52,139 bases of DNA. Origin: Escherichia coli (GTDB lineage: Bacteria; Pseudomonadota; Gammaproteobacteria; Enterobacterales; Enterobacteriaceae). Where the stretch lies: NCBI RefSeq assembly GCF_003334405.1, contig NZ_QOWM01000022.1. The stretch is one strand, 5' to 3'. A program made the position numbers. Shown here piece by piece: positions 45,001 through 52,139 of this stretch (its first letter is position 1; each line of letters begins with the position of its first letter).

Positions 45001-48000
45001 GAGGAAACGTGGTGTATTTAAATATGGGGTAACTCTTTGATTTTAATGGTGCCGATAATAGGAGTCGAACCTACGACCTTCGCATTACGAATTATAAGAA
45101 TCCGTTTCTAATTCAAAGTATTACCCCATCAACACTGCGCTCACACGTCCCACCACATCAAAACATGTAAAGCCTTGCAAGCCATTGTGAGGCCTTATGT
45201 GTCTCAGTTTTGTCCCACCTTGTATTATGACTTGCATAGCCAATGAAGATAAATGTGACGACAAACGGCGCAGCAGTCTTCTTTTCCTTCATACTTTCCC
45301 CACCCAGCATGCATACCTTCTACCATAACTGTAGTTAATGTCTGTTATGAGCGAGGAGCGGACATTGCTAACAGCGTTCTGTGCGAATCAAGCAGGTCAG
45401 TCAAATAATTTATCGTCTGCCTCATAAGTTTCCTGAAACGTGAGGCTATTTGCATTAGGAACTGGATCATCTGCGTGTTGAATAATGGTTTGGCTTTTTA
45501 AAATGCTTTGCTTGAAAAAGCGTTTGCAAATTATCTCACCGTTAACTGGAAGCCAATGCGTGGCCTCTGGAAATAGCGTAGAATTTATAGGGTTTTCCGC
45601 GTTTGGGTTATGAAAAATTTCAATTTCTGAAGTCCATGGCTCATAACTATAGGGTTCCCAAAGACGACGATATTGGTCACTGGCTACATCCATACTGAAG
45701 GGGATGCCACGTAAGGCTCCCGCCGAGTCATTAGCGAACTCACCAATCCTTATGTACCGGTAGCCTTTGATCAAGGCGCCGGAAGAAACAGGTACTCTGC
45801 TCAGCTTGGATAAAGTCGCAGAATTAGAAAAAATAACCGCCGAGAGAGCAATGTTATCGTGTGAATTAAACAAACCAGCACGGATTTTGGGGTCGCTTTT
45901 GAGGCAGTCGACAGTTTCTGCTACAGCCACAACCTTCCCATCTATTTCTTTTTCTCTTCCATAAAATCCATAGAGATAGGTAATTAGAGCCTCACGGCTC
46001 CACATCATTGAACCGGGAGCGTGAAAGTCCGCGATAGCAATGGCAAACGGCTTTCCTTCGACATGAGTGAGACTAGTGTAATTCTTGCGCAGTTTATTCC
46101 TTAGGGTCCGCGCATAACGTTCAGCCGCAATTCCCGATACCCTGTCTTGTCGGTTTAAAGGAAACGTCAGAGGTTCAGCCCTGGCATGGTCGTAACGGTC
46201 CGATGGATTAACTGTCACAGCTTCAATCCAGGCTTCTCCACCTGACCTGTTTATTACGTGAAAATCAGGAGAGGGGTACTCCTGAGTGACTAACAACCCC
46301 TGTTCACGGAAACTGGCCAGGAGCATGGCTTCCCAAATACGTGTATGAAAGTTATCAGTCTGGCACTCTCTTGCCCAGTGAGTATCCGGATTTGGCATTG
46401 CAAGATACAATTGATTAAGCATCCATGCGCCAGGTGCTCTACAAGGATGTCCAAGTAGTTTGAATATGTTACTTGGTTGTCTACCTTCAACATCCCAAAG
46501 CGGTGCGCGCCTGCGTGTACCCGGAGGCAAAGGGACGCGACTCGCAGATTCATCGCATGCCTCACGTATAATTGTGAAAGCCTCTTCTTCACTATATGAA
46601 TCTGACTCCCAGCGTAGCACTGCCCATACATCGTCCTCACGACGCCGCATTATAAGAATGCCATGCTTTCCGCTGTGACAATTACGTGTCAGTGCACAGA
46701 CTGTGACATGATCATGACTACCCCAAGCGCTAACTGGAGGATCATCCCCAAATCCCAGACCTCGGGGAAGCGATAAGGCATATACATCGAATACACAAGA
46801 CGGAATGGGAGTCATCGAAAAGTCTCACTTAATGAGCCTAAAGATAGCGGCAAGCAGACCATAAAAGACCGGTCCATAAGTAGGTACCTTCTGCATTCGT
46901 TAGCGATTTTTTGACTTTGCTAGCAGTCAAACCCAACAATTAACTCTTCAGTAATCTCACTTAAGGAGACTATGCCTTTATATCCAGTTTCAACGTATGG
47001 GACCACCCTATCACTCCATGCCTCTTCTGCTTTCCATGCAGTCCAGGGGATCAATTTATCGAATTTGCTTTCATGAAGAAATAGTATTGAAATTCTATCA
47101 TTAGGCACATGTTTTATAAACTGAGTTGGAAAACATTTATAGGCATGTTCTTCCCAATGCTTAGTCCCATAACATCTGTAGTCAAAAAAGGAAACACAGT
47201 TACGCCGTCTGAAAAAACCATTTGATGAGTTTCCAAATCTTGACATCTGCAATAATTCCGAGTTTGGGATCAAAGCGCCGGACTGTTTTATGAGAGACAT
47301 ATTATTTTCAGGCGTAACATGGAACACTCTTCCTAAAAGAGCAGGTAATATATCATTGTGAGATATGATTTTGAGTTGACTGACTTTCATATATCTTGAC
47401 CATCGAAATATGGATTAGTGCAATACGTTAACATAGCATAATGTCACTAGCGTCTCCTATTGGCACATAGCAGTCCTAGAGACACTGGCGTAAAGCCATG
47501 GAGGATCGGTGGGAGGAGGCGCTAATCCTTTCATACAAAAAATATGTAAAATCAATAACGGCTGTAAATCATTCAATACTCGCCCTATCGGAAGTTCACC
47601 AGCCAACCGCAGCACGTTCTTGCATACGACGTGGCTGCGGTTTCAACTCCCGCCAGCTCCACCAATCATGATTGGACGGTGTAAGGACAACACCAACAAA
47701 AACAGGAAGTTAGCAGTCTCAGCAGGACACCGACCAGACGGTGAGGAGACAAAAAAGGATACGCAAAGGAGCCGCGGCTCTCGAGTGACACAAAAGCCCG
47801 CTTATGCGGGCTTTTTGTTTTTCCCTTAAGTTCCTAGCCGCTTATCTATAACTATGGAAAAATGTTAACCCTGACTGTATGTTAACAAAGGGATGTATAT
47901 GTCGGTTTTTCATAACTGGCTGCTTGATATCGCAAGCGGGAATTACTTTATCTACATCAAACGCCTTTCTGCAAACGACACAGGCGCAACAGGTGGCCAT

Positions 48001-51000: not shown

Positions 51001-52139
51001 CTTCTGGAGTAATTGAACACCTTGGCTGGTATGTATACCGATTGATTGATCCGAGGGACGGAAGCACCTTCTATGTAGGGAAAGGCAAAGGTAACCGCGT
51101 ATTTGCCCATATGCGCGGTGAAGTGGCAGCGACTGATGATGACGAGTTACTGAGCAACAAGCTAAAGCAAATTAGAGAAATAAGGTTAGCAGGACTTGAA
51201 GTTATCCATGTCATCCATCGACACGGAATGACTGATGAAAAGACGGCGTACGAAGTTGAAGCAGCACTTATTGATGCCTACCCTGGGTTAACGAATATCA
51301 TGAATGGTGCTGGCAGCAATGAATTCGGCGCCGCGCATGTCAAAGAGTTGATAGCAACATATCAGCCCGAAACCATAACATTTCATCATAAAGCATTAAT
51401 GATATCCGTTAACAGAAGTGCAAAGGATTCAGAGCTTTATGATGCGGTTCGATTTAGCTGGCGCATTAATGTCTCTCGCGCCAGCCAAGCAGAAATCATT
51501 CTTGCTACTGTAAGGGGGATCGTTCGAGGGGTTTTCATTGCTGATAAATGGCTCAAATCAACACGTGAAAATTTCCCTTCGTTGAAATACTGGGACGAGG
51601 ATCCTGACTTTGAGGCAACACAAAGTTCGCGCTATGGTTTTGAAGGTCGAGAAGCCCCACCTGAAATAGCAAATCTTTATCTTGGAAAAAAAATACCAGA
51701 TGAATTAAGAAAAAAAGGAGCTATGTCCCCGGTCCGTTACTCACCTAATTTTTGAGTCTTTAAGTGATAAGCATAAACCGCAGCACGTCATGCATACGTC
51801 GTGTCTGCGGTTTTTCTTTTTTGCTTACACGGTGTCTGGTTCTTCTGGCCACTCAATATCCGGTGCAGTTGATGTATCAACACGGTTCAGCAACACCCGA
51901 TACTTTTTCCAGGCTTCCAGCAATGAGGTTTCTTCCTCCGTTGCGATTTCCAGATCTACAGCATCCTGAAGTGGCGCAATATGCTCACTGGCTACCTGCA
52001 TCAGGCTGTTTTTTGTTTCTTCCGCCTCCCGGATCCGGAACAGTTTTTCTGCTTCTGCATCTTTCACCCAGGCTGTGCCGTTCCACTTCTGAAACTCCCC
52101 TTCCGGCGATAACCAGGTAACATTTTCCGGTAACGGACC

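Follow-up and report, generated by a model that had tools for sequence, protein, structure and literature searches.

Layout of the locus

The stretch of DNA analysed here (the window) comprises 52,139 nucleotides of an Escherichia coli genome (GCF_003334405.1, contig NZ_QOWM01000022.1). Read leftward from the window end, its terminal arm (45047-52139) carries a tail-fibre assembly gene (tfa), a GIY-YIG gene, a restriction-modification (R-M) pair, two further genes and a tRNA repeat, beyond which lies host DNA. The anatomy of the arm and its host flank was observed directly and is listed below.

39728-44531: paoABCD, host flank
~44582-44920, plus strand: yagP remnant (LysR substrate-binding C-terminus), placed by RefSeq annotation of PSJ-23 and other genomes whose sequence is identical here
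45047-45092, minus strand: att core at attR, the displaced native 3' end of thrW (tRNA-Thr CGU), 46/46 nt exact
45093-45315, no strand: conserved phage-side att arm without a convincing gene
45316-47465, no strand: variable cargo slot 1, an att-proximal hotspot with flanks 98-99% conserved and differing content
45397-46815, minus strand: 472-aa ORF, distant PD-T7-1 relative (PADLOC); the RefSeq model is 341 aa from 46422
46920-47390, minus strand: orf156, uncharacterised, 156 aa, with a predicted ADP-ribosyltransferase (DarT-like) fold
47537-47643, plus strand: repeated non-coding element, ~100 nt, with a 13-bp hairpin at its end (47605-47642); left module 2 boundary
47642-47664, plus strand: fossil ssrA (tmRNA) 3'-end att core, 23 nt exact
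47665-47819, plus strand: ssrA-downstream-like sequence with a strong intrinsic terminator (47792-47815)
47899-49107, plus strand: EcoRII-type type II(E) restriction endonuclease, intact, 402 aa (profile and PDB sequence matches)
49142-50575, minus strand: Dcm/M.EcoRII-type DNA cytosine-5 methyltransferase, intact, 477 aa, convergent with the endonuclease
50982-51755, plus strand: CMoRE/PD-T4-3, a GIY-YIG type IV modification-dependent endonuclease (PADLOC and PDB sequence matches)
51776-51813, plus strand: second boundary hairpin and T-run, terminator after CMoRE and right boundary of module 2
51825-52139, minus strand: 3' part of tfa (104 codons and stop), frame open to the window edge

These elements and their order agree with an earlier note made from the sequence alone; however, the repeat is 46 nt rather than 45 nt long, and tfa, which had been called a fragment, is not one. 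The tfa part matches the full 194-aa Tfa of VTB97585v, and because that genome, 99.7% identical, holds the full gene, tfa is cut only by the window end. It was recognised by PHROG 105 'tail fiber assembly' (2.6e-50), and its 3' end shares 95% identity with lambda tfa. Both genes described as unknown in the earlier note are present, but one of them is a distant relative of PD-T7-1 by PADLOC. The copy of the thrW 3' end lies ~126 bp of host DNA beyond the yagP remnant and was matched 0 times in 100 shuffles; for tRNA and tmRNA genes, ARAGORN detected no complete copy in the window but only fragments, and the ssrA piece is too short for Rfam to score. At gathering thresholds Rfam returned two 'IS009' matches only, both of them tfa 3' ends, and weak matches to CssrB, STnc350, isrK and RsmY (E 0.09-0.85) were dismissed as matches to hairpins or terminators. 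A 50-aa ORF in the att arm (45158-45310) is probably spurious. The cargo had appeared AT-richer than the core by eye, and composition profiles confirmed this: GC is 43.9% in the arm versus 58.2% in the core from paoA to the att site, and GC3 is 0.35-0.40 in the cargo versus 0.58-0.67 in pao. The window as a whole is 49.3% GC, so the pao operon is itself unusually GC-rich.

Prophage context at thrW

The sequence beyond 52139 was read from near-identical genomes (arm identity 99.7-100%) and not from the window's own genome. In VTB97585v, tfa is followed by stf, lom, J, I, K, L, M, the tape measure gene, T, G, V, U and Z, and then by head genes, portal, terminase, lysis genes, Q, cro/cI, a xis-like gene and int. 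An intact tRNA-Thr(CGT) follows int and adjoins proA, i.e. it is thrW, and the 46-nt repeat lies inside it; the prophage measures ~44.7 kb. Lambda-order structural genes likewise continue past tfa in XPF_3, and wherever a relative has kept lambda-type tfa, stf, lom and J, the arm runs directly into them. PSJ-23, the closest relative over 44500-51833 (100% identical), carries the same 46 nt at both ends, at the cargo end and inside an intact thrW beside int (locus coordinates 20548-20593 and 32266-32311, tRNA-Thr(CGT), int adjacent). The structural genes and the matching repeat in an intact tRNA-Thr that the earlier note had proposed to look for were thereby located, and its placement of int at the distant end beside the intact tRNA was seen in two relatives, VTB97585v and PSJ-23. 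The best complete RefSeq match covered 99% of 25 kb, diverging after 51833.

The lambda-type arrangement of J, stf and tfa, b region and attR anticipated by the earlier note is borne out by the gene order of VTB97585v and by the lambda map, J-lom-stf-tfa-(ea47, ea31, ea59)-attP-int-xis, in which cargo occupies the same position. The cargo span between att core and tfa is 6.7 kb, compared with 5.2 kb for the lambda b region, and both are non-essential and AT-rich; however, the two have no gene in common, lambda uses the gal-bio attB whereas the att site here is thrW, and two exchangeable modules with a fossil att core of foreign specificity are features of the window arm. A comparable order (int, att, cargo, invertase, tfa, stf, lom) was found in the isolated lambdoid phage Turner, whose att arm is homologous: the att arm of the window is ~74% identical to the int-adjoining sequence and tRNA-like att site of that phage. 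The Turner site is a different tRNA-like sequence and was ruled out as thrW.

Taken together, these data make it very probable that 45047-52139 belongs to a lambda-type prophage integrated at thrW and forms its non-essential end next to attR, in the position of the lambda b region. The 46-nt copy of the thrW 3' end would then be the att core left at attR, and int and the reconstituted thrW would lie ~38-45 kb further on, outside the window, as judged from relatives. An integrative island of the non-phage CP4-6 type, holding a tfa-like piece by chance, is highly improbable. Such elements do occur here: in E. coli K-12 the non-lambdoid, cryptic CP4-6 runs from thrW to yagP, ending at the same yagP/paoD junction, and VTB97585v has a P4-like satellite with PARIS (AriA/AriB) at this junction. 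However, the genes of CP4-6 are unrelated to those of the arm, none of which it contains, and its integrase, intF, adjoins the yagP-side repeat, at the end opposite to that of the window element, whose relatives have the integrase at the thrW end; the contiguity of the arm with lambda-type tail genes also argues against an island.

By extension from the relatives, an intact prophage presumably lies behind the window in the source genome. The window ends inside tfa and its closest relative, PSJ-23, has no structural genes, which points against an intact prophage. It is accordingly conceivable, if on balance unlikely, that in the window strain the element has decayed and its arm survives as a domesticated island of defence genes, with just part of tfa remaining and no functional prophage behind it. 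In PSJ-23 a deletion joins the CMoRE end directly to the immunity region, retaining cI/cro, int and thrW and removing all structural genes; MSB1_9I matches only to 51512; and GF50 and USMARC-50748 have truncated tfa pseudogenes adjoining the same module. Against decay, the window runs 306 nt past the PSJ-23 deletion point as an open tfa frame, and these 306 nt are 99.7% identical to VTB97585v, a prophage with a full gene set. The arm was not found among the sequenced phages of the phage collection, with coverage of at most 6% in every record, and its packaging into a viable virion is therefore hypothetical.

Modular construction of the arm

The earlier note had read the locus as a single accessory arm; it had the position right and missed the composite nature. 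Rather than one b region, the arm combines two modules, each exchangeable, with a fossil att core of the ssrA type. A comparison with other E. coli genomes, which the note had suggested as a way of defining a variable slot, revealed slot 1. The att arm is 98-99% conserved across all arm variants, up to 45315-45369, and within flanks of at least 98% identity at least six alleles were found.

1916D18: empty
NT1F31: PD-T7-1 proper (2.8e-156)
TUM10008: AbiTii and DUF6650
ETEC4090 and 40EC: 379-aa unknown protein
USMARC-50748: 321-aa unknown protein
Window: 472-aa PD-T7-1 relative and orf156

Just 10 of the 5,426 complete genomes have the window's allele, and the tail-fibre side of the arm also varies among relatives. 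Nothing specific to a lambdoid or thrW hotspot was found in the literature searched. Slot 1 resembles the P2 old/tin and P4 hotspots in its fixed position within a conserved prophage backbone and its alternative defence systems; however, the backbone here is lambda-like, and the flanks are non-coding (att arm, 100-nt element and hairpins) instead of conserved genes. PD-T7-1 and PD-T4-3 both originate from the screen of Vassallo et al. 2022, in which some systems lay in lambdoid prophages (10.1101/2022.05.12.491691).

Module 2, the R-M pair and CMoRE, extends from 47642 to 51813 and is bracketed by a repeated hairpin. The left hairpin (dG -20 kcal/mol, z -3.3) ends the ~100-nt element. Among 5,426 E. 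coli genomes, 5,413 have this element, with 18,247 copies in all and a median of 3 per genome. One copy lies between ecpE and ykgJ in the window (37988-38077, 86.7%); prophages inserted at the lambda att site (O104:H4) or near prfC also have it, at their att-proximal end. The right hairpin is 89.7% identical to 47605-47643 (dG -20.6 kcal/mol, z -4.6), and conservation of module 2 stops at its end, 51813, where the tail-fibre module differs. At the left join, the fossil core matches the ssrA 3' end over 32 nt from 47633 with 3 mismatches, in the orientation opposite to that of the thrW piece. In thousands of genomes, sequence overlapping and following ssrA is ~91% identical to the stretch that comes next (47665-47819), whose ssrA-type terminator folds at -19.8 kcal/mol (z -6.4).

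Module 2 was present at a coverage of at least 80% in 244 of the 5,426 genomes. In GF50, a prophage integrated at ssrA has an arm that matches module 2 at 100% identity, starting inside the ssrA core: in that genome, intact ssrA joins the arm exactly at the position of the fossil core, and the same 24 nt recur past int at the far end of the prophage. A correspondence between the P-side arm of the GF50 prophage and window positions 47465-47641 was rejected, as only the 24-nt core recurs there. Module 2 would thus have come from an ssrA-integrating lambdoid phage, whose att core and ssrA terminator it would still keep, with transfer presumably running from the ssrA phage.

Defence cargo and its proposed role

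The arm cargo consists largely of known anti-phage genes, with orf156 as the one uncharacterised member. The endonuclease aligned over its full length, at high identity, with EcoRII (PDB 1na6, E 1.3e-242, aligned 1-401), matched both separate EcoRII domain entries, 3hqf and 3hqg (N-terminal effector and C-terminal catalytic), and was called REase_II by PADLOC (1.5e-233). Its partner scored 927 bits against a cut-off of 710 for NCBIfam NF007772 (PRK10458) and was called MTase_II (3.8e-230). The pair resembles the EcoRII system (plasmid N3 type) in having both proteins full length and in convergent order, but is prophage-borne, with ~80% nucleotide identity to the plasmid copies. Given the high identity to EcoRII, the pair would be expected to recognise and cleave CCWGG and to methylate the inner cytosine. 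The chromosomal Dcm of most E. coli also methylates CCWGG, and the pair may therefore protect little against phages coming from other E. coli.

The CMoRE gene matched PADLOC PD-T4-3 over its full length (7.6e-140, profile positions 1-255 of 256) and CMoRE of E. coli O157:H7 in the PDB (9u75, 5e-171; 9u7u, 1.6e-150). The full 257 aa aligned with the O157:H7 protein with 9 substitutions, and Y17, Y19 and Y31 of the 'GIYxY-YIG' motif were read directly; the protein is a further allele of characterised CMoRE, with no notable difference. It combines, in one chain, the GIYxY-YIG nuclease domain at the N-terminus with the modification-sensing domain at the C-terminus. CMoRE/PD-T4-3 cuts the hmC and glucosyl-hmC DNA of T-even phages, which evade classical restriction, and its defence activity has been demonstrated in native hosts and in clones (PMC12923530, PMC12366544). 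Since CMoRE tolerates 5mC, it is compatible with the methylase of the pair.

The product of the 472-aa ORF is best called a relative of the PD-T7-1/PD-T7-5 family on the strength of its profile matches: in PADLOC it scored 2.8e-69 against PD-T7-1, with only positions 120-447 of the 452-position profile covered, and 2.6e-35 against PD-T7-5. From residue 110, a position that precedes the RefSeq start, identity to a full PD-T7-1 is 29%; PD-T7-1 was published as acting against T7-like phages. The first ~110 residues of the ORF are unrelated to PD-T7-1, and the ORF had no Pfam or PDB-sequence match. For orf156, no match was obtained in Pfam, NCBIfam, PHROGs, PADLOC or PDB sequences. An alignment-based model predicts an ADP-ribosyltransferase-fold, DarT-like protein; a single-sequence AF2 model (pLDDT 29.9) was discarded as useless. 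At 156 aa the product is shorter than the DarT (DUF4433) toxins of DarTG (~200-220 aa), and it showed no sequence-level match to any DarT/DUF4433 profile, nor similarity to the DUF6650 protein that holds the same position in another allele. A search for a conserved partner gene in nine contexts found neither a macrodomain gene (DarG) nor any other, and a DarTG toxin-antitoxin was accordingly ruled out; in two of the nine, DUF2971/PDC-S31 was loosely associated. In a Citrobacter prophage, a homologue of lambda Ea47 lies two genes from an orf156 homologue.

Strong terminator hairpins follow CMoRE and precede the endonuclease gene, and promoter-like sites showed no excess over shuffles (14 versus 13.4) and so lend no support to autonomous expression. 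We infer that the cargo is expressed in the lysogen and gives the window strain defence phenotypes. As cargo units (putative 'morons', autonomous units of promoter, gene and terminator), some with predicted terminators, these genes would shield the lysogen from other phages and thereby the prophage too: the EcoRII-type endonuclease with its m5C methylase would cut unmodified CCWGG DNA, CMoRE would cut T-even DNA carrying hmC or glucosyl-hmC, the PD-T7-1 relative would probably act on T7-like phages, and orf156 would be the ADP-ribosyltransferase-fold member.

It is also possible, although improbable, that the R-M and CMoRE block is primarily a selfish cassette that spreads from one prophage arm to another through recombination at its hairpins and att cores, with the R-M pair mainly an addiction module that would stabilise the arm. 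Addiction is a known property of type II R-M systems; the block is flanked by 39-nt direct repeats, is identical in prophages that differ in integration site and tail-fibre module, and has the plasmid-borne relatives described above. However, the Dcm of the host would weaken any post-segregational killing by an enzyme of the EcoRII type, the demonstrated defence activity of CMoRE speaks for a role in defence, and selfish spread and defence cargo are not mutually exclusive.

More tentatively, orf156 may found a new family of small DarT-like ADP-ribosyltransferases, each working by itself as an effector against phages or in counter-defence, encoded in the att-proximal slots that prophages and satellites carry, and the ~100-nt element, hairpin and retained att cores may be non-coding linkers for cassette swapping, by which lambdoid phages with different integration sites could exchange whole defence cassettes. 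If the linker reading were true, the chromosomal arrangement ecpE-[element]-ykgJ-[tfa fossil] would represent an arm of this kind that became fixed long ago.

With regard to annotation, the arm explains a recurrent 'hypothetical' block adjoining paoD in ~4.5% of complete E. coli genomes and flags orf156 as an ADP-ribosyltransferase-fold gene; the current view of prophage biology is unchanged by it. The R-M and CMoRE cassette stands unchanged between thrW- and ssrA-integrating phages, with its join marked by a fossil att core, and the arm brings together three mostly characterised defences with complementary targets, namely unmodified DNA, hypermodified T-even DNA and T7-like phages. Altogether, the arm is a clean, well-bounded case of lambda-like temperate phages carrying and shuffling att-proximal anti-phage genes.

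Anatomy of the thrW arm and its prophage context

The DNA of the window is E. coli chromosome, and its right-hand end carries the following features.

Features of the arm and its host flank
39728-44531, +: paoABCD
right of paoABCD: yagP', a LysR-type C-terminal remnant (RefSeq annotation of identical DNA)
45047-45092, -: exact 46-nt copy of the thrW 3' end (0 matches in 100 shuffles)
45397-46815, -: 472-codon ORF, first gene right of the repeat
46920-47390, -: orf156, 156 codons, second gene
47899-49107, +: endonuclease gene, 402 aa, third
49142-50575, -: cytosine methylase gene, 477 aa, fourth, convergent with the endonuclease gene
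50982-51755, +: GIY-YIG gene, 257 aa, fifth
51825-52139, -: last 104 codons of tfa, sixth, frame open to the window edge

The earlier note had described this order, from tfa to the tRNA-Thr repeat, the yagP remnant and the pao genes, as a lambda-type prophage arm, and all of these elements are present in that order. The repeat itself was confirmed, although it measures 46 nt and not 45; ARAGORN detected no complete tRNA in the whole window. The tfa sequence likewise lies at the arm end, but it is not the fragment proposed: its frame is open to the edge and, in alignment, covers the C-terminal half of a complete 194-aa Tfa, indicating that the gene is cut only by the window. The cargo was also correctly judged to be richer in AT than the core, as GC is 43.9% in the arm (cargo GC3 0.35-0.40) versus 58.2% from paoA to the att site (GC3 0.58-0.67).

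Phage structural genes beyond tfa, and an intact tRNA-Thr with a matching repeat, had been expected outside the window, and both were found in relatives. Strain VTB97585v carries the arm at 99.7% identity over 45045-52139 within a prophage of ~44.7 kb, in which tfa is followed, in lambda order, by stf, lom, J, tail assembly, tape measure, head, portal and terminase genes, then by lysis, Q, replication, cro, cI and integrase genes; an intact tRNA-Thr(CGT) and proA come next, placing int at the far end beside the tRNA as anticipated. The tail gene order is the same in strain XPF_3. Strain PSJ-23, a deletion derivative with the arm, immunity region, int and thrW, is 100% identical up to 51833, and holds one copy of the 46-nt sequence at the cargo end and one within thrW. 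These results come from relatives and not from the window's own genome, but they favor the prophage-arm interpretation. The observation is thus real, and the interpretation is supported.

The lambda map reads J-lom-stf-tfa-ea47-ea31-ea59-attP-int-xis, and the tfa 3' end in the window is 95% identical to lambda tfa. The isolated lambdoid phage Turner carries int, a tRNA-like att site, a cargo block, an invertase, tfa, stf and lom, and the arm flanking its att site shares homology with window 45093-45253. In K-12, the same thrW-yagP site is occupied by CP4-6, a cryptic, unrelated element whose integrase lies at the opposite end.

The PSJ-23 deletion (L003 27256-27600) fuses the end of the GIY-YIG gene (window equivalent 51833) directly to the immunity region; it has taken out every structural and lysis gene and spared the defense arm, int and the two att repeats. 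In VTB97585v, yagP' and the prophage thrW repeat are separated by a 16.4-kb P4-like satellite (L001 3600-20000) that encodes an IS3-disrupted integrase, primase, Icd-like protein, AntA and a PARIS AriA/AriB pair. The satellite has its own short (~17-nt), imperfect tRNA-end copy, which shows that the attR repeat is reused as an attachment site to build a tandem array.

Cargo genes of the arm

Comparison of arm variants among E. coli genomes defined the variable cargo slot that had been sought: flanks are conserved to 45315-45369 and from 47428-47465, and the content between them differs. The alleles of this slot are empty, PD-T7-1 proper, AbiTii with DUF6650, a 379-aa unknown, a 321-aa unknown, and the window's pair (the 472-codon ORF and orf156). 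The window's allele occurs in 10 of 5,426 genomes, and the restriction-modification (R-M) and GIY-YIG block in 244 of 5,426.

By sequence, the 472-codon ORF falls within the PD-T7-1/PD-T7-5 family as a distant member (PADLOC, 2.8e-69, profile positions 120-447 only), and its product is 29% identical to true PD-T7-1. The RefSeq model of 341 aa (start 46422) is probably too short, because PD-T7-1 homology starts 22 residues further upstream; a more plausible gene model takes in the full ORF or begins at an internal start such as M56.

For orf156, no match was returned by any sequence library searched. AF2 modeling from an alignment gave a confident structure (pLDDT 92.4) with a predicted DarT-like ADP-ribosyltransferase fold, and H24, Y71 and E134, invariant in 21 homologues, fit a putative H-Y-E catalytic set. 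The homologues, in prophages and satellites, occupy att-proximal ends next to varying neighbors, and no conserved partner gene was seen among the contexts examined. In both kinds of element, homologues recur immediately downstream of the integrase.

The R-M pair is EcoRII-type by homology: the endonuclease matches 1na6 over both domains (1e-242), and the methylase scores over the NCBIfam cut-off for the Dcm/PRK10458 subfamily. The host Dcm probably limits the added benefit of such a pair. The GIY-YIG gene is PD-T4-3 (full-length PADLOC match, 7.6e-140); its protein matches the crystallized O157:H7 protein 9u75 (5e-171) and retains the 'GIYxY-YIG' signature Y17/Y19/Y31. PD-T4-3, now named CMoRE, is a type IV endonuclease: it breaks down DNA carrying hmC or glucosyl-hmC and guards against T-even phages (PMC12923530, PMC12366544, bioRxiv 10.1101/2024.12.20.629700). 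Its reported low affinity for 5mC would be compatible with the adjoining m5C methylase.

A fossil ssrA core and non-coding boundaries

Positions 47642-47664 repeat 23 nt of the ssrA (tmRNA) 3' end exactly, opposite in orientation to the thrW piece, and the ~155 nt after them share about 91% identity with the sequence downstream of native ssrA, terminator included. The ssrA-like stretch as a whole spans 47633-47819. Strain GF50 carries a lambdoid prophage integrated at ssrA, whose att-proximal arm is 100% identical to window 47642-51813, beginning within the ssrA core; the core is repeated after int at the far end of that prophage. The simplest reading of these alignments is that the R-M and CMoRE module recombined, with half an ssrA-type attP, into a thrW-type phage, so that the old core survives as a fossil, 2.6 kb inward of the working att site. 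In GF50 the same module is joined to real ssrA. A second cargo block (a ParA-family protein and two hypotheticals; L015 29136-31181) lies between int and the distal ssrA core there, and a P2-like prophage sits in tandem at that same core.

The module is flanked by two 39-nt hairpin copies (47605-47643 and 51776-51813). The left one ends a ~100-nt non-coding element present at ~3 copies per E. coli genome (about 18,000 occurrences in 5,413 genomes), often at the ends of other prophage arms as well; element or hairpin copies in the window lie at 47537-47643, 37988-38077 and 51776-51813. The element may be a terminator or recombination linker. Its hairpin is stable, with apparent compensatory changes between copies. 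Some annotations wrongly call the element a 'capsid protein' fragment.

Within 37988-38690, the core gene ykgJ (38119-38448) lies between a copy of the element and a C-terminal tfa fossil that carries a frameshift (38491-38690). The three are ordered and oriented as in the prophage arm, which suggests that ykgJ lies within an ancient, fixed arm of a prophage. Rfam's 'sRNA' family IS009 matches at 38491-38690 and 51868-52066 (202 and 229 bits), and in each case the sequence hit is the 3' coding part of tfa, fossil in one and intact in the other; the model looks like a tail fiber assembly gene remnant and not a dedicated RNA gene.

Proposed role of the arm

Beyond the arm's demonstrated anatomy, homologies and modular exchange, cargo expressed from the lysogen would provide layered protection, with unmodified DNA hit by EcoRII-type restriction, hypermodified DNA by CMoRE, and T7-like phages countered by the PD-T7-1 relative. 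One weak point of this scheme is that promoter-like sites were not enriched. Altogether, this is a typical prophage accessory arm with mostly already described defense genes; the sole leads of some novelty are orf156, with its predicted ADP-ribosyltransferase fold, and the architecture of non-coding boundaries and a fossil att core.
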